A stretch of DNA of 64,000 nucleotides from Pseudomonadota bacterium (lineage in GTDB: Bacteria > Myxococcota_A > UBA796 > SXON01). This document shows, one piece after another, positions 4,378-31,136 of this stretch (position 1 is the first letter of the stretch; each line of letters begins with the position of its first letter). The notes below the pieces were generated by a model that did not search any database, was not told where the DNA came from, and saw nothing but the letters and a program-made list of their open reading frames with translations. The translations under genes were made by a program, and so were the position numbers. The stretch spans positions 8,687-72,686 of the forward strand of contig JAUXTN010000147.1 in NCBI GenBank assembly GCA_030684355.1, written 5' to 3'.

Positions 4378-4437
4378 CGGCCGCAAGGCTACCGGTTCGC
4401 GTCCCGGAGCGCGAGCACGGGCTTGAAAACGCCCGCG

Positions 4438-4991: not shown

Positions 4992-6017
4992 ATGTCCCGC
5001 TGGATGATCAACGCGCGCGGTCAGCAGTACAGCGCCTCGAGCATGGAGGAGCTGCGCCAGTTCGCGAAGCGGGGCGACCTGACCGCGGGCGACATCGTGC
5101 AGCCCCCGGGCGCCGCCGACTGGATCTACGCGCTCGAAGTTCCCGAGCTCAAGGGCTCCCTCCGCGCGGACCTGGAGATGGACGCCGACGCGCCGGCCCC
5201 CGCGAGGGAGTTCCCGCCCGTCGTCCGCTGGGTCGCCGCCGCCGCGCTGGCCCTCACGGCGGTGGGCGCCTGGTCCTACGCCCTCGGCCTCCGCGACACC
5301 ATCCCGCAGCCCGATGACCTCGAGCTCATCGGCGGCAAGAGCGGCCTCTCGTTCTCCGAGGTGCTCGTCACCGCCGAGAACGGCCAGCTCTACGCCGCAC
5401 CGGACGCGAATTCGGCGGTCGTCAGCGCGCTGACGAAGAACGCCAAGGCCGAGCTCCTCGCCAAGCGTGGCAAGTGGTACCGCCTCCGTGCGGACGGCAA
5501 GGAAGGCTACGCCGCCTTCGACACCGTCATCCCCGCGTACTTCTTCGGGAACGACGTGGACAAGCTCACGCACGACCCGCTCTACAACCCCGACAAGTAC
5601 GTCTACGTCCGCAACAGCTCGTGGCAGCTCCTCCCCGAGGGCGGCAACAAGAACGTCACGGTGTTCACGTTCCTCATGCAGAACGACGCCAAGTTCGCCA
5701 TGACCGACGTGAAGCTCCTCGTCACGATCAAGGACAAGAACGACGCCGTGCTCGAGACCAAGGAGATCGCCGTCGAAGGCACGATCCCCGCGGAGTTCAG
5801 CACGATGGTGGGCGTCTTGAAGGCCGACAAGCGGGACAAGTCCAGCGTCGACCGCATCATGAGCTCGTCGAGCTTCGAAGAGATGGCGAAGGCCGATCCC
5901 GACCTCGTCGAGCGCTGGCTCGACGGCGTGGAGGTCCGGCTCACGTCGGACGGCTTCACCGAGGCCGCCATCGAGCTGCTCGAAGTGCGCGCGGTCCCCG
6001 CGGAAGCCGCGAAGTAG
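4992..6017 (+). CDS. GYF_2-domain membrane protein with SH3-like and beta-rich C-terminal region
   Basis: N-terminus WMINARGQQYSASSMEELRQFAKRGDLTAGDIVQPPGAADWIYALEVPELK matches the GYF_2 pattern. One hydrophobic helix (VVRWVAAAALALTAVGAWSYAL). Good GC3 bias. Confidence 0.75.
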   Translation: MSRWMINARGQQYSASSMEELRQFAKRGDLTAGDIVQPPGAADWIYALEVPELKGSLRADLEMDADAPAPAREFPPVVRWVAAAALALTAVGAWSYALGLRDTIPQPDDLELIGGKSGLSFSEVLVTAENGQLYAAPDANSAVVSALTKNAKAELLAKRGKWYRLRADGKEGYAAFDTVIPAYFFGNDVDKLTHDPLYNPDKYVYVRNSSWQLLPEGGNKNVTVFTFLMQNDAKFAMTDVKLLVTIKDKNDAVLETKEIAVEGTIPAEFSTMVGVLKADKRDKSSVDRIMSSSSFEEMAKADPDLVERWLDGVEVRLTSDGFTEAAIELLEVRAVPAEAAK

Positions 6018-6025
6018 CAACGGGC

Positions 6026-7969
6026 CTACGCCTCGGTCGTGGCGTCGGGCTCGTGCGCGGGCTCCGGCGCCGCTGACGCCTCCGAGGGCGGCACGAGGCC
6101 GAGCCCCTCGCGGATCGTCTCGCTGTCCCAGGCGTGGTCGCCGAACCCGTGCGCCCCCCGCAGGTCCGCCTGGAGGGCCGTGGAGAGCGCGCTGACGCGC
6201 TCGCGAGCGGTGCTGACGAGCTTCGCCTGGTCGTTGCGGAGCGCCGCCAGCTCGCGGACCGACTGCTCGTCGTAGCGACGGAACGTACGGGCACCACGGA
6301 GCGCGACATAGGCGTGCACCCCGAGCGCGCGCAGGGCGTCGGCGCCGACGCGGAGGGAGGTGTCGAAGGTCTCGCGGTAGACCTCCTCCACGCCCGCGTC
6401 GATGAGCTCGTAGGCCTCGGTGCGGCCGCGGGCCCGGGCGAGGATCGTGAGGTGGGGGAAGTGCTTCCGGGCGGTGTGGACGATCTCCATCGCCTTCGCG
6501 TGCTGGTCGACCGCCACGATGAGCACCTTCGCCGTCCCCGCGCCGGCGGCCCGGAGGAGGTCGAGGCGGGAGGCGTCCCCGTAGAACACCTTCTGGCCGA
6601 ACTTGCCGAGCACGTCCATGAGCTCGGAGTCCACGTCCACGCCCGTCACGCCGATGCCGTTCGCCCTCAGGAAGCGGCCGGCGATCTGCCCGAAGCGGCC
6701 GTAGCCCGCGACGATGACGGGGTTGTGCTCGTCCTCGACGTCGGATTCCCGGGTCTCCGCCTTCACCGTCACGAGCCGGGGGAGCACGAAGCGCTCGTTC
6801 ACCGCGAGGAGGAGCGGGCTCGCGGCCATCGAGAGCGCGGTGACCGCCACCATCGGCCGGATGATGTCGTCGGGGAGTACGCCGCTCTGGCCGGCGAACG
6901 AGAAGAGCACGAACGCGAACTCGCCGACCTGGCACAGCGCAACCGCCAGGATCGCACCCTGATCGCGGCGCGCCCCGAACGCCCGCCCGAGCGCGAGGAG
7001 CAGCCCGATCTTCACGCCGATGACGCCGACGAGGAGCCCGACGATCTTGACCGGGCCGTCGAGGAGGAGGCCGAAGTCGATGGAGGCGCCCACCGCGATG
7101 AAGAAGAGCCCGAGCAGCAGCCCCTTGAACGGCTCGATGTCGCTCTCGAGCTCGTGCCGGTACTCGCTGTTCGCGAGCACCACGCCCGCGAGGAAGGTGC
7201 CCAACGCCGGGGAGAGGCCCACCAGCGACATCAGGAGCGTCACGCCGATCACGAGCAGGAGCGCGGCCGCCGTGAACATCTCGCGCAGGCCGGTCTGCGC
7301 CACCGCGCGCATGGCCGGCCGCACCAGGAATCGCCCCGCGCCGACGACCGCCGAGATGGCGCCGAGCACGACGGCGCCGTGCTGCCAGGCCGGCAGGTGG
7401 TCCACGAAGCTCGCGCCGTGACCCTCCCCCTCCCCTCCCCCCGCGACCGTGACCGTCGCGAGCAGCGGAAACACCGCCAGCATCGGGATCACCGCGATGT
7501 CCTGGAAGAGCAGCACCGCGAAGGACTTCTGCCCCGCGTCGCTCTTCATCAGCCCCTTCTCCGCCAGCGACTGGAGCGCGATCGCGGTCGAGGACATCGC
7601 CAGGATCAGGCCGAGCGCCACCGCTTGCTGCCACGGCAGGCCGAGCGCGAGCGCGATCCCCGCGACGACCGTGGCGGTGCCCAGCACCTGGAGCCCGCCG
7701 AGCCCCAGGATGGGCCCCCGCAAGCGCCACAAGGTCGCCGGGTCGAGCTCCAGCCCCACGAGGAACAGCATCATGACGACGCCGAACTCGGCGAAGTGCA
7801 TGACGTCCTGGCCGCCCTCGGCCCCGACGAGGTGCAGGCCCCACGGCCCGATGAGCAGCCCGGCGAGCAGGTAGCCGAGCACCGAGCCGAGGCCGAGCCG
7901 CTTGGCGATCGGCACCACGACGAGCGCGGCGGCGAGGTAGACGAAGGCCTGGACGAACAACGAGTCCAT
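6026..7969 (-). CDS. kefC: Glutathione-regulated K+ efflux / CPA2 cation:proton antiporter with TrkA-N (KTN) domain
   Basis: MDSLFVQAFVYLAAALVVVPIAKRLGLGSVLGYLLAGLLIGPWGL... is a typical KefB/KefC N-terminus. The KTN Rossmann motif is VIVAGYGRFGQ. It is preceded by a kefF/G-type gene. KefB versus KefC cannot be distinguished by eye. Confidence 0.9.
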   Translation of the reverse strand: MDSLFVQAFVYLAAALVVVPIAKRLGLGSVLGYLLAGLLIGPWGLHLVGAEGGQDVMHFAEFGVVMMLFLVGLELDPATLWRLRGPILGLGGLQVLGTATVVAGIALALGLPWQQAVALGLILAMSSTAIALQSLAEKGLMKSDAGQKSFAVLLFQDIAVIPMLAVFPLLATVTVAGGGEGEGHGASFVDHLPAWQHGAVVLGAISAVVGAGRFLVRPAMRAVAQTGLREMFTAAALLLVIGVTLLMSLVGLSPALGTFLAGVVLANSEYRHELESDIEPFKGLLLGLFFIAVGASIDFGLLLDGPVKIVGLLVGVIGVKIGLLLALGRAFGARRDQGAILAVALCQVGEFAFVLFSFAGQSGVLPDDIIRPMVAVTALSMAASPLLLAVNERFVLPRLVTVKAETRESDVEDEHNPVIVAGYGRFGQIAGRFLRANGIGVTGVDVDSELMDVLGKFGQKVFYGDASRLDLLRAAGAGTAKVLIVAVDQHAKAMEIVHTARKHFPHLTILARARGRTEAYELIDAGVEEVYRETFDTSLRVGADALRALGVHAYVALRGARTFRRYDEQSVRELAALRNDQAKLVSTARERVSALSTALQADLRGAHGFGDHAWDSETIREGLGLVPPSEASAAPEPAHEPDATTEA

Positions 7970-7978
7970 GGGCGCTCC

Positions 7979-8650
7979 CTATGCGCCGGGCGCGAGGATG
8001 GAGTCGGTGAGGGTGGCGGCGGCGAGCGAGGGGCCGTCGAGCCGATCGGGATCGAGCCGCCCGTCGCGGAGGGCCTCGATGACGCGGCGATAGCCGACGG
8101 CGCTGTGCTCGATGTCCGCGTCCGTGAGGCGATGGCTGCCGTGCACGACGAACGGCGGCAGGGTCCGGATCCCGCAGAGGTGCATGCTCTGCTCGATGGG
8201 CGCCAGGAGCTGCCGGATCGTGAAGCGGTTGTAGCCGCCCGGTTGGTAGGCGGTGTCCGGGCCCCCCGTCGTGATGGCGGAGAGGAAGGTCTTGCCGTTG
8301 AGCGCGTGGCCACCGGGGCCGTAGGCCCAGCCGAACTCCAGGACGAGGTCCTGCCACTCCTTCAGGATGGCGGGCGTGCTGTACCAGTAGAACGGATGCT
8401 GCCAGACGATGATCGGGTGGGCGAGCAGCAAGGCCTGCTCGCGCTTCACGTCGATGTCGAAGTCCGGGTAGGCGTCGTAGAGGTCATGGACGGTGACCCC
8501 CTCGATCCCCAGGATCGACGACGCCAGCACCCGGTTCACGCGCGACCGGTGCATGGCCGGGTGGGCCACGAGCACCAGCACCCGCCCAGACGCGCCCCGA
8601 GGCGCCGCGCGCAACCGCGTCGTGCCCCGCTCCCCGCTCCCGTGACTCAT
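7979..8650 (-). CDS. kefF: KefF/KefG-type ancillary NAD(P)H quinone oxidoreductase (flavodoxin-like fold)
   Basis: VLVLVAHPAMHRSRVNRVL ... WQHPFYWYSTPAILKEWQD matches KefF/KefG. The gene sits 10 nt upstream of kefC, as in E. coli kefFC/kefGB. Start re-set to ATG 8650 (MSHGSGERG), which is preceded by GGAGAG. The track ORF extends to 8713. Confidence 0.85.
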   Translation of the reverse strand: MSHGSGERGTTRLRAAPRGASGRVLVLVAHPAMHRSRVNRVLASSILGIEGVTVHDLYDAYPDFDIDVKREQALLLAHPIIVWQHPFYWYSTPAILKEWQDLVLEFGWAYGPGGHALNGKTFLSAITTGGPDTAYQPGGYNRFTIRQLLAPIEQSMHLCGIRTLPPFVVHGSHRLTDADIEHSAVGYRRVIEALRDGRLDPDRLDGPSLAAATLTDSILAPGA

Positions 8651-8737
8651 CGCCTCTCCCGACGCCCTCCGCCTAACCCCGTGCGGGGAAGACGAGCTTG
8701 GGGCGCGGGACATGCCGTGCGTGGGCCGGCCCGGAGC

Positions 8738-11452
8738 CTACCAGGAGAGATCGAAGAAGAGGCTCGGGGACCAGATGTCGTACGGGTAGCCCCAGCCGTT
8801 GGGGAAGTGGTCGCAGTAGTACTCGTCCGGGCCGCACCACCCGGACGCGAAGCCGAGCGCCAGGGAGTCGAGGCTCAGCCCCATGTCGGCGAGCGCGATG
8901 TCGACCTGCACCTCGGTGTCGCTCGGGTAGGACACCGTCGGCGTCGAGATCATCGTAAAGCCGGAGTCGTAGCCCTCGAGCGTCACGACGCCCGACTGGA
9001 CGACCAGCCGGTAGTAGGTCCAGTCCGCGACGCTCGAGTAGCCCCACGCCTCGATGAAGAGCGTGGAGGGGTCGAACACGGTCGCCGACTGGAGCCGGAT
9101 CTGCAGGACGCCGTCGTTCACGCGGTACTGACCGCCCACGAGATCGAAGTCCCAACCCGAGAGGGCGTCCCCCACGGTGTCGCCACGGGGGTCGAGCTCC
9201 TCCCAGGTGGGCTCGCCGAGGATCAGCGTGGTGCGGACCTCGTAGGCGCGCGCCCCGTCGACCATGGAGAGGAGGAGGTCGACGGTGTCGCCATCGGCGC
9301 CGCCGGTGACGGTGACGGTCCAGGGGTCGTCGTTGGCGTCGGAGCGGCCGGCGAGCAGCTCGCGGTAGCTCTCGACGTTCGTGCTGATGCTGACGACGGC
9401 GGTGCTCGTGGACTCGGCGGTGAGCGTGGCGTCAAGCGCGCCCTCGGTGACGGCGTCCCCGAGGTTGCTGACCGTGAGCGTGAGGTCGGCGCTCTCGTCG
9501 GCGTCGAGGACGCCGTCGTTCCCGGCATCGTCGATGCCGACCGCGGAGACCGCGAGGTACGGAAACGGCACGGCGAGGTCGACCGGGAGGGTCCAGGACT
9601 CGACGCCATCGTCGAGGAGGAGCTCCAGGGCCACGTCGGTGCTGTCGGTATGGGTCGCGGCGATGTCGAAGGCGAAGAGCCCCGCGACGTTCACCGAGGC
9701 GCCCGCGCCGATCGCCGCGCTGGTCAGGGCGACCGGGCCGGCGTCGGTGACGGTCACGTCGGGGTCGGTCGACGAGAGCGTCGCGGTGACGGCGCCCTGC
9801 GTCGCGTCGCCGTCGTTGGTGACGTAGAGGCCGAGCGTGGCGCCGACGGTGCCGGGGGTGAGCGTCGTGGGGTCGGTCGAGGCGACGACCTCGAACGCCG
9901 GCGGTTCGGGCACGTAGGCCAGGAGCTCGCCGCCCGCGATGACGGTGGGGAGCACGGTCGCGGTGTAGTCGACGCCGTCGTAGCTCACGACGAAGTCTTC
10001 CAGGCGGCCGGCGACCTCGGGGGTCGCGCGGACGAACCAGCGCAGCGCCCCGGCGGTGGGGGGCAGGAGGTCGCCCTGGTCGGTGATGTCGACCGAGAGC
10101 GTCAGGGTGTCGCTCGTGAGGTCGTCGTAGACGGACTGCTCCCAGGTCGGCGCGGCGGGGTCGCCCACGCCCAGCACCAGCTCGAGGCTGCCGGCGGCGC
10201 TCGACGTGTACGAGATCGTCGCGGTGCTCACGACGCCCACGAGGACCTGGTCGTCGAGGGTCCAGGTGGACTCGCCCTCGGTGACGGTCACCGTGACGGG
10301 GACGTAGTGGTTGTCGGGCGTCGAGGGGTCCACCACGAGGGAGAACGCCGCCGAGCCGCTTCCGCCCGCGGTGATCGCATCGATGGCGACGCTGCTCTCG
10401 GCGACCGAGGCGCCGCCGTCCGGGAAGCTGACGCTGACCGCCACGTCCGCGGCGTCGACCAGGCCGAGGTTGTCCACGGAGACCGTGAACGTGCCCTCGC
10501 CACCGGGATCGATGGGCGCGGGGGTGACCTCGGCGTCGAGCACGAGGTCGGGCTGGAGGGCCTCCACCCGCACGTCGTCGAGGTACCAGTCGTCCGAGAC
10601 CTCGCCGACGAAGCGCCAGGCCAGGTACACGGTGGGCGCGCCGGCGTAGGCCGACAGGTCGTAGACCGCGGAGCGGCCCCAGGCGGCCTCGGCGGGCGCG
10701 GGGAGGGTCTCGGCGACCACGACGTAGTCGCCGTCCTCGGGCACCCGGCTGCCGACGCTCGCGTAGAGCGCGTGGTTCGCGAGGCTGGTCTGGCGGCCGA
10801 ACTCTCGCCACGTGACCTGCGCGTTCGGCACCGAGCTGAAGTCGAGGGCCGGCGTGATGAGCCAGTCCTCCATCTCGTCGATCCCGGTGTAGCCGCGCGA
10901 GTGGAACGCGGACTGGGTGCCGGCGTAGGCCTCGCTCGCGCTGGTCGCCCAGCCGTAGCCGTAGAAGCCGACGCTCGAGTTGGCCCAGCCGAGGTCGGAC
11001 AAGGTGCTCTGGGTCTCGTCGTACTCGAAGCCCTGAACGTAGGGCAGCGGCGCCCCGACGACGGACACGCGGAGCTCGTAGGGCTCGGACGCCCCCTCCG
11101 TGGGGAGGTAGGTCGTGGCGGGGATGTCACCCTCGTCCGTGGCCTTGAAGTAGTACTCGACCGCGGGGTCGTCGACGTCGGTCGCCTCGAGGACGACCGC
11201 CCACACGTCGGCTTCGCCTTGGGTCATCGGCGCCTGCACCCACGTCGTCTCGCCGGAGACGCGGTGGTACAGCGTCACGGCGGAGACGCCGTCGGCGTCC
11301 GTCGCGGTGACCTCGAGCGTCGTCTCCGTGGCCTCGATGACCCCGGCGTGCTCGGTATGGCCAAGCTCCGGGCCCGCGAGCGGGACGCCGGTCTCCTTCA
11401 CGTCGTCGTCACCGTTGCACGCGACCAGCAGGACGAGGAACCCGTACCGCAT
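8738..11452 (-). CDS. Large surface lipoprotein E: Ig-like N-domain, choice-of-anchor-J/MAM-like domain, CARDB-like repeats
   Basis: Real start is ATG 11452 (MRYGFLVLLVAC, lipobox), overlapping the upstream stop as TGATG. The track ORF to 11845 is an Arg-rich artefact. The segment GWANSSVGFYGYGW...EDWLITPALDFSSVPNAQVTWREF...YLAWRFVGEVSDDWYLDDVRVE resembles choice-of-anchor J. It is followed by CARDB-like repeats (PGGEGTFTVSVDNLG...). Confidence 0.8.
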   Translation of the reverse strand: MRYGFLVLLVACNGDDDVKETGVPLAGPELGHTEHAGVIEATETTLEVTATDADGVSAVTLYHRVSGETTWVQAPMTQGEADVWAVVLEATDVDDPAVEYYFKATDEGDIPATTYLPTEGASEPYELRVSVVGAPLPYVQGFEYDETQSTLSDLGWANSSVGFYGYGWATSASEAYAGTQSAFHSRGYTGIDEMEDWLITPALDFSSVPNAQVTWREFGRQTSLANHALYASVGSRVPEDGDYVVVAETLPAPAEAAWGRSAVYDLSAYAGAPTVYLAWRFVGEVSDDWYLDDVRVEALQPDLVLDAEVTPAPIDPGGEGTFTVSVDNLGLVDAADVAVSVSFPDGGASVAESSVAIDAITAGGSGSAAFSLVVDPSTPDNHYVPVTVTVTEGESTWTLDDQVLVGVVSTATISYTSSAAGSLELVLGVGDPAAPTWEQSVYDDLTSDTLTLSVDITDQGDLLPPTAGALRWFVRATPEVAGRLEDFVVSYDGVDYTATVLPTVIAGGELLAYVPEPPAFEVVASTDPTTLTPGTVGATLGLYVTNDGDATQGAVTATLSSTDPDVTVTDAGPVALTSAAIGAGASVNVAGLFAFDIAATHTDSTDVALELLLDDGVESWTLPVDLAVPFPYLAVSAVGIDDAGNDGVLDADESADLTLTVSNLGDAVTEGALDATLTAESTSTAVVSISTNVESYRELLAGRSDANDDPWTVTVTGGADGDTVDLLLSMVDGARAYEVRTTLILGEPTWEELDPRGDTVGDALSGWDFDLVGGQYRVNDGVLQIRLQSATVFDPSTLFIEAWGYSSVADWTYYRLVVQSGVVTLEGYDSGFTMISTPTVSYPSDTEVQVDIALADMGLSLDSLALGFASGWCGPDEYYCDHFPNGWGYPYDIWSPSLFFDLSW

Positions 11453-11979
11453 CACTCCTCCTCGTAGAGCCAGCAGTACGTGAAGCACTGGTTCGACACC
11501 ACATTGCCGTTGAAGTCCGACACGGGGAGGCAGTCGAAACCGCCCGGGCAGTCCGTGTCGCTGTCGCAGGTCACCCCGCAATAGCCGCCGTTGAGGCACA
11601 TGTTGCCGTTGCCGCCGCAGTCGCCGTCGTCCTCGCAGGGGGCGCAATAGTAGCCGCCGGCCTGGTAGCACTCCCCGCCGGGGTTGCAGAACTCGCCGAA
11701 GCCGCAGTCGAGCTTGGTGTCCGTGCACTCGGCGGCGACGCACTCCTGGGTCTCGGCGTCGCAGAGGTCGCCGAAGCCGCAGTCGTCGTGGGTCTCGCAG
11801 CCGTCCACGCAACTGCTGTTCTCGCAGTGCTGGTTCAGGCCGCACTGGAAGGACGTGGCGCAGCTATGGGACTCGCACTCGCCGGCGACACAGACCGACC
11901 CGAACGGGCACGGCACGTCCTCGGAGCACTCCGCGGTCTCCTGCGGGCAGCCGAGGAGCATCATCAACAGAAACACCAT
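11452..11979 (-). CDS. Cys-rich repeat lipoprotein D (myxobacterial Cys-rich repeat-like)
   Basis: Start ATG 11979 (MVFLLMMLLGC), overlapping the upstream stop as TGATG. About 30 Cys lie in repeated C-x-dD-dC-g-g-x-C modules (CETHDDCGFGDLCD, CEDDGDCGGNGNMC, CDSDTDCPGGFDC). Confidence 0.8.
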   Translation of the reverse strand: MVFLLMMLLGCPQETAECSEDVPCPFGSVCVAGECESHSCATSFQCGLNQHCENSSCVDGCETHDDCGFGDLCDAETQECVAAECTDTKLDCGFGEFCNPGGECYQAGGYYCAPCEDDGDCGGNGNMCLNGGYCGVTCDSDTDCPGGFDCLPVSDFNGNVVSNQCFTYCWLYEEE

Positions 11980-13469
11980 CAGTTGCTCCCGCTCTGGACC
12001 TTGTACTCCACGAGGATGTACTGCTGGCTCTCGGGGACCTGGTCGTACTCGAAGCGGATCAGGTTGTCCTCTTCGACGTAGGTGAAGTCCACGTCGATCG
12101 TGAGATCGCGGATCTTGCTGGCCTCGTCGGCGTCCGCATAGATCGACACCTTCAGGGAATCGAGGCGCGGCACCTTGGAGAGGGCAAACTCCGCCTCGAG
12201 GCCCGACAGGGTCAGCCCGAGCTCGTTGACGATGGGGGAGAAGTCCTCGTCGCAGATGGAGTCGACCAGGCCGGCGGTCTCCTCGACGGCCCGCAGGTAG
12301 CGACGGCCCCAGTCCGCGGTCCCGTTCGCGGAGCTGCAGCTCGGCTCGCCGTCGAACTCGGGGGCGCGATCGCCGATGACCGCCGAGACGTTCATCATCG
12401 AGTGGTCGCGGTACGCGGCCTCGCCCTTCAGATCGGCGTAGAGCGAGAGGTAGTCGTTGACCGGGAGCGGCGAGGAGTCTTCCTCGTCGGACACGATCAG
12501 CACGGAGAAGTTGGCGTCTTCCCGGATGAACCCGTCGTTGGCGCCCGAGCCGTCCCCCGCGACCGAGAGCAGCGGCTCGGAGATCGCGAGGCGAACGGCC
12601 TCCAACCCCATCTCGATGCCCGACCCGCTCACGCCCTGGGCGACCATCTCGGCGAAGATCTCCTCGGGCCCCTCGGTCTCGTCCGTCAGGTAGAGATCGT
12701 GGTTGTTGAGGGTGAAGTCGTCGCCCACGGCGAGGTCCGCACCTTCGACGTCGAGCGTGCGCGCGAAGACGAGGGCCTCGCCCGCGGGCAGGAGCGTGCC
12801 GTCCGGGACGAGGTAGGCGTTGCGGCCGTCGTCCATGAGGGCGTACCCGGAGAGGTCGACCTCGGCGGCGCTGATGTTCGTGATCTCGACCCACTCCCCG
12901 GCGGCGTCGGTCACGCCGTCGGGATCGGGGGCGAACTCGGTGATGACGATGTCGCCGCGCGTGGCGTCTGCGCCAGGGCCGGTGCCGCCGCAGCCCGGGT
13001 TCGCGGTGCCGGGGGTGGCCGCAACGTCGGTGCACCACTTCGAGGCGGAGTCGTTGCTCGTGCCCGCGAAGTAGGACGGATCGAGGGACAACACGACGCC
13101 CGGGGCGACCGGCCAGTCCCGGTTGTACTCGACGCGGTCGATCTCGCGGCCCGTCGCGTCCGCGAGGACGATCTCGTCGTCACCGCCGATGAGGTGGCCG
13201 GAGAACTGCTCCTGGTCGACGTCCGTGGTGATGACGCCGAGCTGCCAGTCGACCTTGGCTTCGTCGAAGTACTGGATGAAGCTGTCGAAGTTCCCGGCGA
13301 GCTTCGCCTGTTCCTCGACCATGGAGCAGCTGTTGTCGACGACGAGCAACAAGTCGACCGTGTTGAGGCGGTTCTGGATGAACACGTCCTCCTGGGTCGG
13401 CTGGGTGTAGCCGTAGTCGGTGCAGCCGAGGAACAACGAGGGGGAGAGGAGCAGGATCAGACTACGCAC
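11979..13469 (-). CDS. Lipoprotein C: von Willebrand A domain interrupted by a lamin-tail-domain (LTD)-like insertion
   Basis: GTG start at 13469 (MRSLILLLSPSLFLGC). The MIDAS motif is LLVVDNSCSM. The LTD-like block is DIVITEFAPDPDG..EWVEITNISAAEVDLSGYALMDDG...LPAGEALVF. The vWA fold resumes at GSGIEMGLEAV...NFSVLIVSDEED. Confidence 0.85.
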   Translation of the reverse strand: MRSLILLLSPSLFLGCTDYGYTQPTQEDVFIQNRLNTVDLLLVVDNSCSMVEEQAKLAGNFDSFIQYFDEAKVDWQLGVITTDVDQEQFSGHLIGGDDEIVLADATGREIDRVEYNRDWPVAPGVVLSLDPSYFAGTSNDSASKWCTDVAATPGTANPGCGGTGPGADATRGDIVITEFAPDPDGVTDAAGEWVEITNISAAEVDLSGYALMDDGRNAYLVPDGTLLPAGEALVFARTLDVEGADLAVGDDFTLNNHDLYLTDETEGPEEIFAEMVAQGVSGSGIEMGLEAVRLAISEPLLSVAGDGSGANDGFIREDANFSVLIVSDEEDSSPLPVNDYLSLYADLKGEAAYRDHSMMNVSAVIGDRAPEFDGEPSCSSANGTADWGRRYLRAVEETAGLVDSICDEDFSPIVNELGLTLSGLEAEFALSKVPRLDSLKVSIYADADEASKIRDLTIDVDFTYVEEDNLIRFEYDQVPESQQYILVEYKVQSGSN

Positions 13470-14361
13470 CGCCAGCCTCCGTCTTTGCCGCGGCGGCCGG
13501 AGCGGCCTCGTCGGACTCGTCGTCCCCGCTCCCCTCGGTCAAGCCCTCGACGCCCTCGAGCAGGAGCGACTGGGTGACCTGGGGGTTCTGCGCGGAGAAG
13601 TGGAACGTGGAGTAGACGACCTGACCGCGGCCGGCGACGAAGCGCACGAGCAGCGGGGCGCCCGTGAGGGTCTCCGGGAGCTGATCGGCCGAGGGCTGGT
13701 AGTCCACGTTGCCGGAGAGGAGGACCTCCGTGCCCGTGCCGACGCTCTCGATCACGGACCAGGCGGTGTAGTCGTAGGCGAGGTTGACGGTGGCGCCGAG
13801 GGCCTCGATGAGCTTGTCGCCCTTCACGTCCGCCAGCACGTCGCCCGCGATGCCGGCCTGCGCGGCGTCCGGCACGGTGTCGTCTCCGAAGAGCTCGAGC
13901 GCGTCGGGCCAGCAGTACTCGACGAGCTCGTAGGCCCAGTCGCTCACGACGAGCGTGCCGCCGCCCGTGGCGAAGTTGCAGGCGTGGTCCATCGCGTCGG
14001 TGTCGAGCAGGAGCGAGTCGTCGGGCTCGAGCTGGTTGTTGTAGCGGAAGGCGCCGAGGCCCCGCGTGCCCGAGTTGACGAACACCGCGTTGAAGGCGGA
14101 CACCTGAAGCTGTCCGTTCTCGTCGGTGCCGGTGAACAGGCCCTCGACCGAGGGCCCGCCGAAGTCGCGCACGGTGCGGTCGTCGTCCGGCTCGTAGGTC
14201 GCCTGGACGATGAAGCCGTCGTACTCCTGCGTCGCGATGTCGAGCGCGGTCAGGGTGTCTCCGACGTTGTCGAAGTCCCCGAGCACGACCGCGATCGCAT
14301 CGAGGCGGATCTCAGCGAATTCCTGGTCGGTCTTGCAGGCGAGCAGCGCCAACAGCATCAT
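13462..14361 (-). CDS. Lipoprotein B, possibly class-I glutamine-amidotransferase-like (ThuA/DUF4159-like) fold
   Basis: Start ATG 14361 (MMLLALLAC-K), forming an ATGA overlap with the upstream stop. The pattern AVVLGDFDNVG...FVNSG...GGGTLVVSDWAYELV resembles GATase1-like domains that accompany vWA proteins. The C-terminal tail is acidic and Ala-rich. The fold call is tentative. Confidence 0.7.
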   Translation of the reverse strand: MMLLALLACKTDQEFAEIRLDAIAVVLGDFDNVGDTLTALDIATQEYDGFIVQATYEPDDDRTVRDFGGPSVEGLFTGTDENGQLQVSAFNAVFVNSGTRGLGAFRYNNQLEPDDSLLLDTDAMDHACNFATGGGTLVVSDWAYELVEYCWPDALELFGDDTVPDAAQAGIAGDVLADVKGDKLIEALGATVNLAYDYTAWSVIESVGTGTEVLLSGNVDYQPSADQLPETLTGAPLLVRFVAGRGQVVYSTFHFSAQNPQVTQSLLLEGVEGLTEGSGDDESDEAAPAAAAKTEAGGA

Positions 14362-16169
14362 TCGAGCACCAGGTAGCCCTGCACGTACACGTACGTGCTG
14401 CTCTTGTTGTTCTGGATCGTGCTGAACGGGAACCCGAACTCCGGGCCCTCGGGGATGAGGCTCTCGGCCACGAACGTCGCGCTGCCGGCCTCGAGCTGGA
14501 TGAGCTCGTCGGACGTGTAGGTGTGCTCGCCGTCGTCCCAGGGGATCGAGCCGACGAAGCCGCCCTCGCCGGTCGCGACGAGCGTGCCGGAGATCTGCGT
14601 GATGAAGAAGGCGTCGGGGTAGGTCTGGGCGGGAGACCAGGTGTACGTGAGGTCTTCCAGGCGGTTGTGCGTGAAGTTGCCCCACCACCCGGGGTCGATC
14701 ATGTGGAAGTCCGCCGGGACGGTCGGCTGCACGTCCTCGAGCACGTACTCGCCGATGCCGCCGTCCTCACCCTGGGTGTGGAGGTCGTACATCTGGTCGA
14801 AGCAGTAGTCGTCGAGGGTGAGGTCGGCCGTGTAGTAGATCATGCCCGACGCGCCGTCGACGTACTTCTCGAGCTGCACCACGTTGCAGTCGGACTCGAA
14901 CCACACGTACTCGCCCGCACCGAGCGTGATGGGGTTCGGGCAGTCGGACGTGCCGCCCGTCGTGTAGGTCTGGAACACGCCGTTGCTGTCATAGGGCTGC
15001 GGGCCGGAGGCGCACGAGGGGTCACTCGAGCAGTCGTTGTCGTAGCAGTCGATGAAGCCGTCGCCGTCGTTGTCCTCTTCGTCGCCGCAGGCGTAGGCCT
15101 CGGGGCTGTTCGGGCACGCGGGATCGAGCGGGATGTAGAAGATCGCCGAACCCCTCACCTGCTCGGTGATGGCGCCCGTGGTGTTGTCGATGCCGCGCAC
15201 CACGTTGAACGACAGGGAGATGCCGACGTCTTCGAGGGCGATGTCCGCCTCGGTGACCTCGAAGGCGTCCTCCATGAATACGCCCTCGTCGTCCGTGGTG
15301 ACCATCGCGTCCCGGAAGCCGACCTCCGCGGCGTTGGACACGGTCATCCGACCCCAGAGGTTCTCGGCGTCGACGACGCTCAGGCTGTCCACCACGACGT
15401 CGCCGTTCTCGTAGCCGTTCTTCCAGAAGGTCAGCTCGGAGTCGGCGCTGAAGTGGGTGCCGGCGCCGTGGATGGTGAACTCGACGGTCTCCCCCTGTGC
15501 GGCGGTCGTGGGGTCGAACTCGGCGGAGAGTGCGACGCGGTCGACCTGGAAGCCGCCGTAGAGCGTGGTGAGGTCGGGCCCGACCTCCATCGACACGTCC
15601 CGCAGGCCGGGCACGGCGTCCGGGCCGACCGTGACGCTCGCGATGGCAAAGGTCTCGGACAGCACGTCGACCGCGGTCACCTCGATGTCGGCGCCGAAGT
15701 TGGCCCACGTGGTGCCACCCACCCACTCGGTGTTCTGGCCGAGGATCTCGACGACGATGCTCTCGCCGATCCGCGCTCGCTCCGGGGTGATGCTGAACGA
15801 GTCGTCCACCACCGTGAGGGCCTCGGAGATGCTGTAGGCGCCCTCCCCCGTGGAGATCTCCGCAGTGCGCGCGCCGAGGTCCGCGCCGGGCTCGACCGTG
15901 ATGTTGGCCGTGGCGGTCCACCCGTCGAGCACGGTCACGCTGTTGACGACCACGCCGGCCCCAAGGTCGAGCTCGGCGCCGGCGAACGAGAAGATCGACG
16001 CGCCGGCGGTGATCCGGGCCTCCTCGATCGTGATGCCGCGGCCGGCCTCGGGGGGCCAGAACTCGAGGCCCCCGAGCTCTTCCTCGGCTCCCTTGTCGTC
16101 CGAGCCGCCTGCGTCAGTGCAGCCACCCATCCACACGAGGGTCAGGGAGAGGAACAACAGGCGCGACAT
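14358..16169 (-). CDS. Lipoprotein A: three Ig/IPT-like repeats, acidic Cys-rich module, beta-rich C-terminal domain
   Basis: MSRLLFLSLTLVWMGGC lipobox. ATG 16169 is preceded by GGAG at 5-nt spacing; an alternative ATG lies at 16190. There are three ~90-aa repeats, each ending in ...G.RDV/A.V... The Cys-rich module is CPNSPEAYACGDEEDNDGDGFIDCYDNDCSSDPSC. Confidence 0.8.
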   Translation of the reverse strand: MSRLLFLSLTLVWMGGCTDAGGSDDKGAEEELGGLEFWPPEAGRGITIEEARITAGASIFSFAGAELDLGAGVVVNSVTVLDGWTATANITVEPGADLGARTAEISTGEGAYSISEALTVVDDSFSITPERARIGESIVVEILGQNTEWVGGTTWANFGADIEVTAVDVLSETFAIASVTVGPDAVPGLRDVSMEVGPDLTTLYGGFQVDRVALSAEFDPTTAAQGETVEFTIHGAGTHFSADSELTFWKNGYENGDVVVDSLSVVDAENLWGRMTVSNAAEVGFRDAMVTTDDEGVFMEDAFEVTEADIALEDVGISLSFNVVRGIDNTTGAITEQVRGSAIFYIPLDPACPNSPEAYACGDEEDNDGDGFIDCYDNDCSSDPSCASGPQPYDSNGVFQTYTTGGTSDCPNPITLGAGEYVWFESDCNVVQLEKYVDGASGMIYYTADLTLDDYCFDQMYDLHTQGEDGGIGEYVLEDVQPTVPADFHMIDPGWWGNFTHNRLEDLTYTWSPAQTYPDAFFITQISGTLVATGEGGFVGSIPWDDGEHTYTSDELIQLEAGSATFVAESLIPEGPEFGFPFSTIQNNKSSTYVYVQGYLVLE

Positions 16170-16258
16170 GCCGACTCCGGTACCCCGCATGACGCAGGGT
16201 GACGCAGTATAGCCGGGATTGGCCCAGAACGCGGAAGCGCGTCGCCGCTGCCGCGTCG

Positions 16259-17740
16259 CTACCCAGCGAGCGAAAGCAGCGAGTCCTGCGCCCAGTCCAA
16301 CGCGGTTCCGGGCACGAGCCCCAGGATGAGCATGACCGCCGAGCAGAGCGCCACGGCAAAGGCGGCGCGACGGTCGATGGTGACGGCCGGGTGCCCATCG
16401 CGCATGTACATCCAGATCATCGGGCGGATGTAGTAGTACACGCCCAGCGCCGCCGAGATCGCCCCGATGATCGCCAGGTTCCGCTCACCGGCCTGCAGCG
16501 CCGCCGAGAACAGGTAGAACTTGCCGACAAAGCCCATCGTGGGGGGGATGCCGGCAAGCGAGAGCAGGCAGATCGACAGGCCCGCCGCGATCCAAGGGTG
16601 GTCGTGCCCCAGACCGGCGAGACGCTCGATGCGGGAGTCGTCCTTGCCGTCGCGCGTGAACATCGAGAGCACCGCGAAGGCGCCCGCGTTCATGAACGTG
16701 TAGCTGAGCATGTAGAAGAGGAGGCTGCCGAGCGCCGGGCTGTGCGCGAGCCCGCCCGGCCCGATCGACACGAACGCCATCAGCAGGTAGCCGGCGTGCG
16801 CGATCGACGAGTAGGCGAGGACACGCTTGAGGTCATCCTGGACGAGCGCGCCCAGGTTGCCGACGATCATGGTGAGCGCGGACATCCACCACAGGGCACC
16901 GTGCCAGCTCGCGGCGTCCTCGCCCATGGCACCGAGCACGACGCGACCGAACGCCGCGAAGCTCGCCGCCTTGACACCGGACGCCATGAGCGCGGTCACC
17001 GAGGTGGGAGCGCCCTGGTACACGTCGGGGGCCCACATGTGGAAGGGCACGCTCGCGACCTTGAAGCCGAAGCCCACGATCAGGAGCCCGCCGCCCACCA
17101 CGACGAGGGAGTTGGACGCGGCGTCGTGACCAGCGGCGAACCAGGCGGTGAGCGCCTGGAGGGAGGTGCTGCCGATCGCCCCGTAGACGAAGGAGATGCC
17201 GTACAGCATGACGCCCGACGAGAAGGCGCCGAGGATGAAGTACTTGAAGCCGCTCTCGACGCTCTTGGGATCCCCGCGCTTGAGGGCGCAGAGCACGTAC
17301 ATCGCGATGCTCATCACCTCGAGGGCGATGAAGACCATCATCAGGTCGTTCGCGGCGCTCATGAGCATCATGCCGAGCACGCCGAACAACACCAGGGCGT
17401 AGTACTCGCCGACGCGCACGCCGATGCGCTCGAGGTACCCGTCGCTCATGAGGAGCGAGAGGAGCCCGGCGAGGATCGCGCAGACCTGGAAGAACACGCC
17501 GTAGCGGTCGATCCGGAGCATGCCGGCGTAGGCGTCGACACCGCCCTCGGCCATCCCGTGGACGAGCGCGGTGAGCGCGCCCGCGGCGAGCAGGCCGCCG
17601 AAGCCGAGCGCCCAGAAGATGCTCTTGCTCTCGGGCCGGGCCCACGCCTCGATCAACATGATCGCCAGCGCGACGCAGAAGACCAGGATGGACGGGCTCG
17701 TGAGGAGGAGGGAGTCGCCGAGGGCGGGAATCTGGATCAT
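16259..17740 (-). CDS. nuoN: NADH-quinone oxidoreductase subunit N
   Basis: Polytopic antiporter-like protein, in the last position of the nuo cluster. Contains SIAHAGYLLMAF and PPTMGFVGKFYLF motifs. Confidence 0.93.
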   Translation of the reverse strand: MIQIPALGDSLLLTSPSILVFCVALAIMLIEAWARPESKSIFWALGFGGLLAAGALTALVHGMAEGGVDAYAGMLRIDRYGVFFQVCAILAGLLSLLMSDGYLERIGVRVGEYYALVLFGVLGMMLMSAANDLMMVFIALEVMSIAMYVLCALKRGDPKSVESGFKYFILGAFSSGVMLYGISFVYGAIGSTSLQALTAWFAAGHDAASNSLVVVGGGLLIVGFGFKVASVPFHMWAPDVYQGAPTSVTALMASGVKAASFAAFGRVVLGAMGEDAASWHGALWWMSALTMIVGNLGALVQDDLKRVLAYSSIAHAGYLLMAFVSIGPGGLAHSPALGSLLFYMLSYTFMNAGAFAVLSMFTRDGKDDSRIERLAGLGHDHPWIAAGLSICLLSLAGIPPTMGFVGKFYLFSAALQAGERNLAIIGAISAALGVYYYIRPMIWMYMRDGHPAVTIDRRAAFAVALCSAVMLILGLVPGTALDWAQDSLLSLAG

Positions 17741-17743
17741 TGG

Positions 17744-19387
17744 CTACTCCCCGTGCGCGCCGGAGGCGGCGTCCGGAGCGGGCGCGTGGTGGGCGGGGGG
17801 CGCGGCGTGGGTGGGGGCGTCGTCGTGAGGGGCGGCCGCCGGGGCCGGCGCCGCGGAGGCCGCGCCGATCCAGGAAGGGACGCCGCCGGCCGCGAGGTAG
17901 GGCGTGCCGTCGAAACGCTCTTCCATCCGCGCCACGAAGGCGTTGACCGAAGGGTTGATGCGGTCCAGGAAGGGCTGCGGGAACACGCCCATCACGAAGA
18001 TGAGCACGATCAGCGGCGCCATGTACCCGATCTCCCTCGCGTTGAGGTCCGTCAGGGTCTGGTTCGCGCGGTTGGTCAGGGGCCCGAACATGACCCGCTG
18101 GAACATCCACAACATGTAGGTGGCGCCGAAGATCACGCCGGTCGTGGCGATGGCGGTCGGGATGGGCGCGTATTGGAAGGCGCCGAGCAGGATCATGAAC
18201 TCGCCGACGAACCCGTTCGTGCCCGGGAGGCCGATGGACGAGAGCGTCACGATCATGAAGGCCACCGCGAACAGGGGCACCACCTTGGTGAGGCCGCCGT
18301 AGTCCACGATCTTGCGCGTGTGGCGCCGCTCGTAGAGCACGCCGACGAGGAGGAACAGGGCGCCCGTGCTCACGCCGTGGTTGAGCATCTGGTAGATCGA
18401 CCCGGCCACGCCCTGCGGGTTGAGCGCGAAGAGGCCGAGCATCACGAACCCGAGGTGGCTCACGGAGCTGTAGGCGACGAGCTTCTTCACGTCGTCCTGC
18501 ACCATCGCGACGAGCGCGCCGTAAACGATGCCGATCACGCAGAGGGCGATGAGGAACGGCCCGAACGCCATGGTGGCTTCCGGGAAGAGCGGCATCGCGA
18601 AGCGGTAGAAGCCGTAGGTGCCCATCTTGAGCATCACGCCGGCCAGCACCACCGAGCCACCTGTGGGGGCCTCGACGTGGGCGTCGGGCAACCAGGTGTG
18701 GAGCGGGAACATCGGCACCTTGATGGCGAACGCGAGCGCGAAGCAGGCGAACATCCAGAGCTGGGTGTCGTAGGGGATGTTCAGGGCGAGGAGGCGGCCG
18801 AGGTCGGTCGTCCAGGTGCCCTCGACCTGGTGGTGCAGGACGTAGAGCCCGATGAGCGCCACCAGCATCAACAGGGAGCCGACGATCGTGTACACGAAGA
18901 GCTTGACCGCCGCGTACAGGCGGCGCTCCCCGCCCCAGATCCCGATGAGGAAGTACATCGGGAGGAGGACGAGCTCCCAGAACAGGTAGAAGAGGAACGT
19001 GTCGAGGGCGACGAACGTGCCGATCATCGCGCCTTCGAGGACGAGCATCAGCGCGAAGTAGCCGCGCTGGTTCTTGTCCACGCCGCTGAACCCGGCGAGC
19101 ACGATGATGGGGGTCAGCACCGTGGTGAGCAGGATGAGCAGGAGGCTCACCCCGTCGATGCCGACGTGGTAGCTCACGCCGAAGGCGGGGATCCAGTCCA
19201 TCTTCTCGACGAGCTGGAAGAGCTCGGCGCTGTTCGGATCGAACTGGAACCACAGCGGGATGGACACCAGGAACGCGAGCACCGACACCGCGAGGGCCGA
19301 GGACTTCGCGGCCCGCTCGGGGAGCGCAGCCACGATGGCCGCGCCGACGATCGGGAGGAAGGTGACGAGGGAGAGCAGGGAGGGCAT
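17744..19387 (-). CDS. nuoM: NADH-quinone oxidoreductase subunit M
   Basis: WIPAFGVSYHVGIDGVSLLLILLT and HTWLPDAHVEAPT motifs. It carries a ~55-aa Ala/Pro/His-rich C-terminal tail. Confidence 0.95.
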   Translation of the reverse strand: MPSLLSLVTFLPIVGAAIVAALPERAAKSSALAVSVLAFLVSIPLWFQFDPNSAELFQLVEKMDWIPAFGVSYHVGIDGVSLLLILLTTVLTPIIVLAGFSGVDKNQRGYFALMLVLEGAMIGTFVALDTFLFYLFWELVLLPMYFLIGIWGGERRLYAAVKLFVYTIVGSLLMLVALIGLYVLHHQVEGTWTTDLGRLLALNIPYDTQLWMFACFALAFAIKVPMFPLHTWLPDAHVEAPTGGSVVLAGVMLKMGTYGFYRFAMPLFPEATMAFGPFLIALCVIGIVYGALVAMVQDDVKKLVAYSSVSHLGFVMLGLFALNPQGVAGSIYQMLNHGVSTGALFLLVGVLYERRHTRKIVDYGGLTKVVPLFAVAFMIVTLSSIGLPGTNGFVGEFMILLGAFQYAPIPTAIATTGVIFGATYMLWMFQRVMFGPLTNRANQTLTDLNAREIGYMAPLIVLIFVMGVFPQPFLDRINPSVNAFVARMEERFDGTPYLAAGGVPSWIGAASAAPAPAAAPHDDAPTHAAPPAHHAPAPDAASGAHGE

Positions 19388-19388
19388 C

Positions 19389-21452
<2,064 letters not shown>

Positions 21453-21454
21453 CG

Positions 21455-21763
21455 CTACCCCTTCATCAGGTCAAGGTCATCGAGACTGACGGTGACCCGG
21501 TTGCGGAAGAGCAGGATGACGAGGGCGAGACCGACGGCCGCTTCGGCCGCCGCCACCGCCATCACGAAGAGGGCGAACACTTGACCGTCAACTAGGCCGG
21601 AGTGGCGGGAGAACGCCACGAACGACAGGTTGACCGCGTTGAGCATGAGCTCGATGCTCATGAACACGATGAGGGCGTTCTTCCGGGTGAGCACACCGCC
21701 CACGCCGGTCGCGAAGAGCACGGCGCTCACCGCGAGGACCGGGAACAATCCGACCGACTCCAT
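21455..21763 (-). CDS. nuoK: NADH-quinone oxidoreductase subunit K
   Basis: Internal ATG 21763 of track ORF 21455..22333. Sequence [51 protein letters not shown] overlap with the nuoJ stop. Confidence 0.93.
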
Positions 21764-22266: not shown

Positions 22267-22304
22267 CGGCTGCCCGGTTTGGGGGGATGGGCGGTGGGGT
22301 GCGC

Positions 22305-22333
22305 GGTTTACGACGCCGGGGGGGCGCTGTCAA
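22305..22333 (-). promoter_or_regulatory. Candidate internal promoter in the nuoI-nuoJ gap
   Basis: The minus strand reads TTGACA-N17-TAAACC, inside the only sizeable (94-nt) intergenic gap of the nuo cluster. Confidence 0.25.
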
Positions 22334-22360
22334 CGCGTGCGGAGGAGGGCGTGCTCGTCG

Positions 22361-22927: not shown

Positions 22928-22941
22928 AGCGGCGGACCTCT

Positions 22942-25859: not shown

Positions 25860-25862
25860 GAC

Positions 25863-29471: not shown

Positions 29472-29484
29472 CGCTCCCTCCCTC

Positions 29485-31102: not shown

Positions 31103-31136
31103 CAGCGGGCGGGAGCGGCGCGCATCCTCCGCCATC

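Follow-up and report, generated by a model that had tools for sequence, protein, structure and literature searches.

A conserved block of five lipoprotein genes with a MIDAS-type subunit in uncultured Myxococcota, candidate for an adhesion-type complex

The subject of this study is a block of five minus-strand genes, here called A to E, found in a 64-kb window of bacterial DNA (the window being the whole stretch of 64,000 nucleotides taken from contig JAUXTN010000147.1 of assembly GCA_030684355.1, placed in Myxococcota_A by GTDB). The block follows nuoN and each of its genes encodes a predicted lipoprotein. It is real, conserved as a unit in about 50 related species, and undescribed. Protein C carries a von Willebrand factor type A (vWA) domain with a complete MIDAS (metal-ion-dependent adhesion site). 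The reading that we favour, with a probability of about 0.45, is that A-E make up a stoichiometric, lipid-anchored, MIDAS-dependent adhesion-type complex. The weaker claim of an extracytoplasmic hetero-complex having a MIDAS-dependent binding subunit is probable.

Lipid-anchored vWA/MIDAS adhesins have recently emerged as contact devices of predatory or gliding bacteria, with CglB, CglD and Bd0875 as examples. To our knowledge, those described are all single proteins that dock onto other machinery. What is new here is a set of five lipoproteins, fixed and translationally coupled, that is arranged around a vWA/MIDAS head and shared by about 50 species-level genomes of an uncultured lineage. Although its function is read from architecture, the block is a good lead for the envelope biology of uncultured Myxococcota.

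The gene block and its conservation

The five genes were called by combining a listing of open reading frames (ORFs) with gene calling based on the GC content of third codon positions (GC3), and the lipoboxes were read directly in the translations (Table 1). GC3 lies between 0.95 and 0.97 in the five genes. All five proteins start with a short hydrophobic signal peptide ending at the lipobox cysteine and, in the ortholog alignments, this cysteine is invariant in every one of the five families. The ORF listing, the GC3 calling and the reading of the lipoboxes bear out the original prediction, made from the letters of the window, of five minus-strand lipobox genes. Two of its figures are corrected: protein D has 27 cysteines instead of 30 and protein E has 904 residues, counted from its ATG, instead of 905.

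Read base by base, the genes overlap at every junction, as had been predicted: by 4 nt between A and B (ATGA), by 8 nt between B and C (GTGCGTAG), by 1 nt between C and D (TGATG) and by 1 nt between D and E (GTGATG; 4 nt if the GTG is the start). A GGAG-type Shine-Dalgarno sequence is found upstream at all four junctions. The tight coupling is kept in orthologues: over 38-53 orthologous junctions for each pair, the downstream gene starts in most loci at -8 to +2 nt relative to the stop codon of the gene before it. For gene A itself, the ATG at 16169 and not that at 16190 is the start because the GGAG that precedes it (Table 1) is conserved in orthologues. The gap to nuoN is therefore 89 nt; the 68 nt given earlier is correct for the ATG at 16190 and too short for the supported start.

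Conservation of the block was evaluated in a locus survey using one genome per GTDB species, in which 76 B-like loci were found and their flanks checked by tblastn. B is flanked by A and C in 51 of the 76 loci (loci of the survey carry L numbers below). Among these 51, the order A-B-C-D-E is complete in 44, seven end at a contig edge, and none is without an internal gene. The genes around three B relatives that are 72%, 47% and 42% identical to B are the same five in the same order. Order and junctions are still kept where A, B and E share no more than 30-45% identity with the window. The suggestion that relatives might share the block as a unit has therefore been answered positively by this synteny check. 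All 51 loci come from uncultured metagenome-assembled genomes (MAGs) labelled Myxococcota, Deltaproteobacteria or Proteobacteria, some of the labels being obviously wrong. For instance, L010, L017, L018, L026 and other MAG records are titled Klebsiella pneumoniae, Bifidobacterium breve, Enterobacterales or Rickettsiales, which are evidently wrong labels. Many isolate or sample names of the loci point to lakes and groundwater, and the window sequence itself was found in a groundwater metagenome.

Larger protein collections were searched as well. In a collection of 5.8 billion proteins, B has 115 relatives, all of 285-315 amino acids (aa) and unannotated; those with an organism label all come from uncultured MAGs. 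A has 239 relatives and C has 460 and, among the matches listed, the annotation is 'hypothetical' or 'lamin tail domain-containing protein', in keeping with the earlier statement that the gene set matches no described system. The C-terminal domain of A is found in 58 clusters only among 1.84 billion representative proteins (exhaustive phmmer search), always at the C-terminus of proteins of ~560-610 aa, or in fragments. As judged from these sequence searches, the B family and the domain at the C-terminus of A are lineage-restricted components with no relatives outside the lineage.

The residue following the lipid-modified cysteine deserves a separate comment. In Myxococcus xanthus, the lipoproteins of the inner membrane are enriched in a lysine at position +2 (8 of 12; PMC3222651). 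In the window, +2 Lys occurs in B only, and it had been proposed that B would for this reason stay in the inner membrane while the other four proteins are exported. This idea does not withstand comparison, as Lys is found at +2 in 6 of 41 B orthologues and also in some A and E orthologues. Being rare in B and present in A and E, it is therefore not a conserved sorting feature of B. None of A-E has the +7 Ala signal for extracellular-matrix lipoproteins.

Domain architecture of the five proteins

The domains that had been recognised by eye in all five proteins were recovered with NCBIfam and Pfam, with hhalign for the repeats of A, and with AlphaFold2 (AF2) models compared by Foldseek for B and C. 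In protein C, residues D45, S47 and S49, T81/T82/D83, E286 and D328 of the MIDAS are invariant in 35 sequences, as is the lipobox Cys16. The insertion in the vWA domain matches the lamin-tail domain (LTD) profile PF00932 with 70.6 bits over residues 169-238, for a gathering threshold of 34.3, and residues 170-239 align with profile positions 4-71. Residues 93-116 weakly match the final 24 positions of the same profile. From these alignments, the lamin-tail insertion appears circularly permuted. The AF2 model of C, with a predicted local distance difference test (pLDDT) value of 84, displays the beta-alpha-beta, Rossmann-like order of a vWA domain plus terminal beta strands, one strand (25-32) preceding the vWA core and six (426-491) following it. 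C has six cysteines and no DxDxDG array.

The modular content of C is not constant. The LTD insert is missing from the C protein of L060, the most divergent system. In this protein (L060 10882-12540), long acidic Cys-rich repeats are inserted late in the vWA domain. The C protein of L003 (10854-13004) reaches 716 aa, with an extra inserted segment of ~200 aa made of Gly/Pro-rich linkers and a further domain. Compared at the sequence level, C orthologues thus undergo module swapping.

Among described proteins, C may be compared with Bd0875 and Bd1483 of Bdellovibrio bacteriovorus, which have a lipobox and a vWA domain inserted in a beta domain (Tyson et al., 2024, PMC11003981). C and these proteins are alike in having a lipobox Cys, a short beta segment, a vWA domain with a DxSxS...D MIDAS and a C-terminal beta-rich domain, and also in carrying an extra 'cap' inserted beside the MIDAS face. 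However, the cap is a ~180-aa lamin-tail domain in C and a 34-aa loop in the Bd0875 type, and C is one of the five lipoproteins of a fixed operon, whereas Bd0875 has been described as a single adhesin. The match of C to NF052240, the family of the Bdellovibrio MIDAS adhesin, has an E-value of 1e-14 but involves only ~60 residues (37-95, on profile positions 56-116 of 378), and its 54.4 bits stay far below the family cut-off of 700. C is therefore not a member of this family.

A second comparison concerns M. xanthus, itself a member of the Myxococcota, whose lipoproteins CglB and CglD are located in the outer membrane or at the surface and contain vWA/MIDAS domains (Islam et al., 2023, PMC9946355). 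CglD is an integrin-beta-like surface lipoprotein, which combines its vWA domain with a Cys-rich stalk and with acidic repeats that bind Ca (bioRxiv 10.1101/2023.10.19.562135). These module types recur in the block: C has the vWA domain, D is rich in cysteines and A carries the acidic double-disulfide module. They are nevertheless distributed over five polypeptides here, whereas they are fused in the single 1130-aa CglD chain. COMP-like DxDxDG repeats are absent, the Cys-rich stalk is not in the C chain, and the match to the CglD family NF033765 (E-value 2e-11, 42.3 bits for a cut-off of 400) is confined to the MIDAS region, so that C is not a member of this family either. On the strength of these profile matches, C is a distant relative of Bd0875/Bd1483 and of the vWA part of CglD, outside both families. 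By analogy, it may work like the lipobox MIDAS adhesins. Membership in the Glt gliding machinery was considered but finds no support near the loci: there are no glt or agl genes within 10 kb of the block in any locus. A, B, D and E gave no match to the gliding families of NCBIfam.

A third comparison is structural. In integrin beta, the beta-I domain (vWA/MIDAS) is inserted in the hybrid domain and has a specificity-determining loop after beta2; RrgA and SpaC have inserted arms. Like the integrin beta headpiece, RrgA and SpaC, C would have a beta-sandwich into which the vWA/MIDAS domain is placed, and an additional insertion following beta2. Indeed, the top Foldseek matches of the C model in the Protein Data Bank (PDB) are integrin beta chains, RrgA and SpaC (E-values 2e-5 to 1e-4, probability ~1.0). 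The template modelling (TM) score is ~0.27, a low value because the match spans multiple domains, and sequence identity is 8-11%. The likeness is therefore to be taken as an analogy of architecture only. Moreover, C is predicted to be lipid-anchored, whereas integrins have a transmembrane helix and RrgA and SpaC a sortase link, and there is no partner with the beta-propeller of an integrin alpha subunit.

The resemblance of the C fold to the pilus tip adhesins RrgA and SpaC leads one to consider a polymer resembling type V pili, as encoded by fimA-E and mfa1-5 in Bacteroidota. In type V pili, the operon counts about five genes, the subunits are synthesised as lipoproteins, and a vWA domain is present in Mfa5. 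By this account, the five lipoprotein precursors would be exported, clipped and polymerised to give a fibre, with a vWA protein at the tip. Such a mechanism is hardly credible here. There is no FimA/Mfa-family Pfam match in A-E or in their orthologues, the five proteins are unrelated in fold, so that stalk-pilin paralogy is lacking, and the alignments showed, downstream of the lipobox, no conserved site for cleavage at Arg/Lys.

Protein B has no Pfam or NCBIfam family above threshold, and a weak match to DUF4350 was obtained for 3 of its 41 orthologues. Its AF2 model, derived from 41 sequences, has a pLDDT of 86 and a predicted TM score (pTM) of 0.83. Foldseek matches in the PDB include ThuA-like 4jqs, STM3548 (2gk3), the middle domain of glycoside hydrolase family 42 (GH42), GATase1-like 3rht and GMP synthase, with E-values of 5e-7 to 1e-5 and TM scores of ~0.45. 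Of 111 PDB matches at E <= 1e-3, the best 50 consist entirely of GATase1-type enzymes, of proteins that are GATase1-like or ThuA-like, and of GH42 glycosidases, in which it is the middle domain that adopts this fold. As modelled, B thus has the fold of class-I glutamine amidotransferases (GATase1-like), in a predicted non-catalytic version. The only cysteine invariant in the 41 sequences is the lipobox Cys9, so there is no Cys-His-Glu triad, and the nucleophile-elbow position reads D141-W142. The fold is common to B and to non-catalytic GATase1-like modules (ThuA-like, STM3548, GH42 middle domain, DUF4350). Compared with these, B is a lipoprotein without the catalytic triad and without a Pfam family at threshold.

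GATase1-like domains, DUF4350 among them, are frequently encoded next to vWA proteins, as in MoxR/DUF58 or Bat-type operons. A Bat/MoxR-vWA system was nevertheless rejected, as neither a MoxR AAA+ ATPase nor a DUF58 gene occurs among the called neighbours and the conserved neighbour clusters. In the same genomes, a B-like domain recurs in other lipoproteins, either of 353 aa or of ~550 aa with CarboxypepD_reg-like N-terminal domains. Runs of lipoprotein genes in which it is fused to 1-3 CarboxypepD_reg-like domains are found in L081 (7161-14723), L070/L080 (5905-10552) and L057 (7353-14825). This suggests that the GATase1-like module has been reused across several lipoprotein clusters of Myxococcota.

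Concerning protein A, its three Ig-like (immunoglobulin-like) repeats are mutually homologous (hhalign 98-99%, E-value ~1e-15), and the Ig-like Pfam domain Qn_am_d_aIII matches 16 of 22 A orthologues. The acidic Cys module is present as a single copy and scores 30.1 bits against NF033662 (acid_disulf_rpt), below the cut-off of 41. A profile search against PDB sequences relates this module to the teneurin C-rich domain 7plp and returns nothing else for A. The module is missing in about half of the orthologues. Protein D consists of cysteine-knot repeats, and its 26 non-lipobox cysteines are invariant, as is the lipobox one; DUF7107 matches 20 of 26 D orthologues below threshold.

In protein E, the CARDB domain is matched in 23 of 26 orthologues and InhA-like_MAM in 2 of 26. 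The C-terminal domain is conserved, with the motif GWCGP..YYCDHFP.GWGYPY, and E also has further all-beta regions. About 500 further residues of E have no domain match, and a profile search of E against PDB sequences finds Ig-like pieces only.

A hint of contact between B and E comes from gene pairs found elsewhere. In L059, L066, L072 and L074, a gene for a 144-aa lipoprotein overlaps the start of the gene for a 353-aa B-like lipoprotein (Table 1). The 144-aa protein and the N-terminal Ig-like domain of E are homologous (profile E-value ~1e-16, 26% pairwise identity). The recurrence of a B-like gene with a gene resembling the N-terminal part of E is the best available sign that B might dock the N-terminal domain of E. 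Beside the B-like paralogues, no remote homologues of A, C or E were found save these 144-aa genes and one C-like gene without LTD (L071).

Table 1. Coordinates of the genes, domains and sequence elements (window numbering unless a locus is named).
Feature	Position	Strand	Description
Gene A	14358..16169	minus	603 aa, lipoprotein, lipobox Cys17, lipobox WMGGC then T
Gene B	13462..14361	minus	299 aa, lipoprotein, lipobox Cys9, lipobox LLAC then K
Gene C	11979..13469	minus	496 aa, GTG start, lipoprotein, Cys16, lipobox FLGC then T
Gene D	11452..11979	minus	175 aa, lipoprotein, lipobox Cys11, lipobox LLGC then P
Gene E	8738..11452	minus	904 aa, lipoprotein, lipobox Cys12, lipobox LVAC then N
A, three Ig-like repeats	aa 36-124, 125-214, 215-318 = nt 15216-16064	minus	mutual homology by hhalign
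A, acidic double-disulfide module (optional)	aa 357-386 = nt 15012-15101	minus	NF033662 sub-threshold match
A, orphan C-terminal domain	aa 390-603 = nt 14361-15002	minus	214 aa, invariant PWDDGEH motif
C, MIDAS-type motif D45-x-S47-x-S49	nt 13323-13337	minus	complete, with T81/T82/D83, E286, D328
C, lamin-tail-domain insertion	aa ~84-265 = nt 12675-13220	minus	after strand beta2 of vWA
C, C-terminal beta-sandwich	aa ~425-491	minus	AF2 model
E, N-terminal Ig-like domain	aa ~20-137 = nt 11042-11395	minus	match to PPAD Ig-like C-terminal domain, E-value 6e-6
E, choice-of-anchor J (MAM-like)	aa 140-296 = nt 10565-11035	minus	NF038128, 42.2 bits, cut-off 30
E, CARDB	aa 300-388 = nt 10289-10555	minus	PF07705, 38.1 bits, cut-off 22.7
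Shine-Dalgarno GGAG of gene A	16175..16178	minus	6 nt before ATG 16169; CCGGAG-N6/7-ATG kept in orthologous loci
TATACT, putative -10 box of the block	16206..16211	minus	36 nt upstream of the A start codon
nuoN	16259..17740	minus	last gene of the 14-gene nuoA-N operon (16259-30326); context gene, not part of the system
kefF (Flavodoxin_2) and kefB/C (Na_H_Exchanger + TrkA_N)	6026-8581	minus	between gene E and the GYF/SH3 gene
GYF_2/SH3_3/DUF3426 protein	4992..6017	plus	341 aa, convergent downstream neighbour of the block; Pfam
Gene pairs outside the block	L059 9192-10687; L066 9192-10687; L072 8893-10441; L074 2158-3617		CarboxypepD_reg-like + B-like in the 353-aa partner

A proposed lipid-anchored adhesion-type complex and its alternatives

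In the proposed complex, A-E would be five subunits exported through the Sec/signal peptidase II (SPII) route, lipid-anchored, and gathered in one integrin-like hetero-complex, most likely attached to the outer membrane. C would be the working head, in which a carboxylate of the ligand would complete the coordination of the divalent cation in the MIDAS, in the manner of integrins, CglB/CglD and Bd0875. This ligand could be a substratum, a prey or matrix component, or a partner protein, and the lamin-tail insertion would shape or gate its access to the MIDAS. D, with 13 potential disulfides, would serve as a rigid stalk or spacer, the counterpart of the Cys-rich EGF stalk found in integrin beta and CglD. 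A, with its Ig-like repeats and orphan domain, and E, with its Ig-like, MAM-like lectin-type and CARDB domains, would give reach and secondary binding surfaces, and B would be the scaffold docking the N-terminal Ig-like domain of E. Lipidation, location in the outer membrane or at the surface, assembly, ligand binding by the MIDAS, contact of B with E and a role in adhesion are what we infer for A-E. If the five proteins do assemble, they would offer a compact and genetically tractable case of an integrin-like adhesion module built from separate subunits, as well as a first role for the GATase1-like lipoprotein module that recurs in other lipoprotein clusters of Myxococcota.

Several observations weigh against this proposal. 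The sign of assembly is the arrangement of the genes, from which we infer the complex. The TM scores of the structural matches of C are low, and a profile search of C against PDB sequences gave no match. The invariant polar cluster of B could be an unrecognised active or ligand site instead of a docking surface. The block contains no gene for a dedicated translocator or beta-barrel. Many orphan acidic lipoproteins are encoded in this organism, so that a cluster of lipoproteins is as such nothing unusual. Finally, the sequencing runs holding this sequence are DNA metagenomes only (groundwater, freshwater sediment), with no RNA run among them.

It may be envisaged that A-E are co-regulated but independent surface or periplasmic lipoproteins, for instance a toolbox of binding proteins, made together without forming a single complex. 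This would fit with the fact that all five are composed of generic extracytoplasmic modules (Ig-like, CARDB, MAM-like, LTD, Cys repeats) and with the many other orphan acidic lipoproteins, some of which are clustered, as at 31071-33915. It would also fit with the variation of modules already described: A can do without its acidic Cys module, the C protein of L060 has no LTD, and that of L003 has an extra domain. Nevertheless, gene order is strict and no gene has been lost in the 51 loci even at identities as low as ~30-40%, the overlapping start and stop codons are kept at all four junctions, and the pair formed by B-like and E-N-terminal-like genes recurs elsewhere. We therefore consider mere co-regulation as unlikely, and the adhesion-type complex stays the best reading.

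The original prediction of a multi-subunit envelope or surface complex had left a choice between adhesion and capture of metals or ligands. The first term is retained here, whereas metal capture has received no specific support. A-E are very acidic, with net charges of -13 to -18 per 100 aa, and strong acidity of all five would favour cation binding. However, every predicted exported protein or lipoprotein of the window has a net charge of -10 to -18 per 100 aa and an isoelectric point (pI) of ~4.1, as exemplified by 31071-33915 (+), 46860-49331 (-), 53902-54918 (+) and 56066-56338 (+); the cytoplasmic and membrane proteins of the window are near neutral in charge. Another four acidic proteins are encoded as a cluster, divergently upstream of nuoA, with a lipobox in three of the four called sequences and a Pfam match in none. 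Acidity being common to the exported proteins of the window, it marks export in this organism and not a special function of A-E. As evidence for metal binding it was rejected, the other exported proteins being equally acidic. Heme-based electron transfer was rejected as well, as no CxxCH motif is present in any of A-E.

More broadly, the block could encode a system for nutrient, metal or polymer capture, or an enzymatic system, in which B or E would be catalytic or bind a soluble ligand, acquisition replacing adhesion. B indeed has a GATase1-like fold, and its invariant polar motifs (GDFD, NSGTRG, DWAY, WPD and DAAQ) bring invariant Asp, Ser, Arg, Trp and Gln residues to positions of the GATase1 active site. 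Choice-of-anchor J/MAM and CARDB domains are common additions to secreted hydrolases, and the InhA-like_MAM matches in two E orthologues point in the same direction. These features are counterbalanced by the missing Cys-His-Glu triad of B, by the absence of any catalytic Pfam or NCBIfam domain in A-E and in the 22-41 orthologues of each, by the lack of heme motifs, by an acidity that is general to the exported proteome, and by the fact that neither a TonB-dependent receptor nor an ABC transporter is conserved beside the block. Acquisition is, in our opinion, a quite unlikely function for A-E, and adhesion is preferred.

Going beyond the adhesion-type complex as stated above, it is tempting to imagine a heteromeric 'split integrin' of a bacterial class not described before, where the functions of CglD or integrin beta (MIDAS head, Cys-rich stalk, Ca-binding acidic module, Ig-like legs) would be spread over five stoichiometric lipoproteins around a GATase1-like organiser having a conserved and, possibly, ligand-sensing or catalytic pocket. 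This assembly would be the main device for substratum or prey contact of a whole uncultured freshwater and groundwater lineage of Myxococcota, and its ancient position behind complex I would reflect co-regulation with the respiratory energy supply. Taken as a whole, this picture is speculative and rather improbable.

Putative promoter, nuo linkage and neighbouring genes

In the window, the block directly follows the nuo operon on the same strand, and the original prediction had raised the possibility of a functional or transcriptional tie, with read-through from nuoN. As had been noted, the gap contains no convincing terminator: the scan finds no terminator-like site in it, its RNA fold is unremarkable (z = -0.4), and a search of Rfam gives nothing at E <= 1. 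A consensus scan of positions 7800-17000 finds no sigma-70 match and a single terminator-like site, on the plus strand inside gene A, which is irrelevant here.

A candidate promoter element was found only by comparing orthologous intergenic regions. The hexamer TATA[AC]T is present 15-110 nt upstream of A in 35 of 44 loci, for 0.005 expected per interval of this kind at ~70% GC. It occurs in nuo-linked and unlinked loci alike, at a variable distance from the start codon, and in several loci a -35-like hexamer is seen 17-18 nt upstream of the box (for example TTGACC-N17-TATACT in L060). From these sequence comparisons, the hexamer is read as the probable -10 box of the operon's own promoter. 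The 64-kb window contains just two TATAMT sites, each upstream of a gene. The other occurrence, at 36965-36970 (+), is intergenic and just before a gene at 36978; it fits with the motif being the -10 box used by this ~70% GC organism.

Linkage to nuo was scored on the 43 loci in which at least 2.5 kb of sequence precede gene A. In 22 of them nuoN is the immediate upstream neighbour, and in 25 it is within the flank, other genes being inserted between it and A in the three additional cases. The 18 others have unrelated genes upstream of A, often on the opposite strand. In a tree built from A and C, nuo-linked and unlinked loci form clades. Adjacency to nuo is therefore most likely an inherited gene order that has undergone a few rearrangements. 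Taken together with the -10-like box found regardless of nuo, this clade structure indicates that A-E are probably an autonomous unit. Read-through from nuoN is still compatible with the lack of a terminator, but it is not needed given the block's own box. The tie to nuo that had been envisaged is thus not upheld.

The same data bear on the idea that A-E could be a periplasmic accessory of respiratory complex I, co-transcribed with nuoA-N by read-through. Its appeal lies in the position of nuoN, on the same strand, 89 nt upstream and with no terminator-like site between, and in the persistence of this adjacency in 22 of 43 loci, including the diverged L042 and L051 (B 36-40% and nuoN ~52% identical). 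Set against this are the clade-structured lack of linkage in 18 of the 43, with three more having inserted genes, and the -10-like box in linked and unlinked loci. Moreover, A-E have no transmembrane helices beyond the signal peptide and no Fe-S or heme motifs, and a gene for a GYF/SH3 protein is kept beside the block slightly more often than nuo (29 of 52 loci for 25). An accessory role in complex I thus looks very improbable, and an autonomous adhesion-type block remains the preferred reading. In more general terms, genes that closely adjoin a housekeeping operon do not necessarily share in its function.

On the other side of the block, this GYF_2/SH3_3/DUF3426 gene is the most often kept neighbour, mostly convergent and immediately downstream; other examples, of ~340 aa, are found in L001 (18302-19321) and L005 (16169-17182). 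In the window, kefF and kefB/C stand between it and gene E. The kefF-kefB pair occupies this place only in the window and in four close relatives, and so looks like a recent insertion into an older arrangement. Further downstream, a minus-strand gene at 1-4386 runs off the end of the window; it encodes more than 1460 aa of a signalling protein with kinase-like, AAA_16 and GAF domains, and a gene of the same type follows the block in L001.

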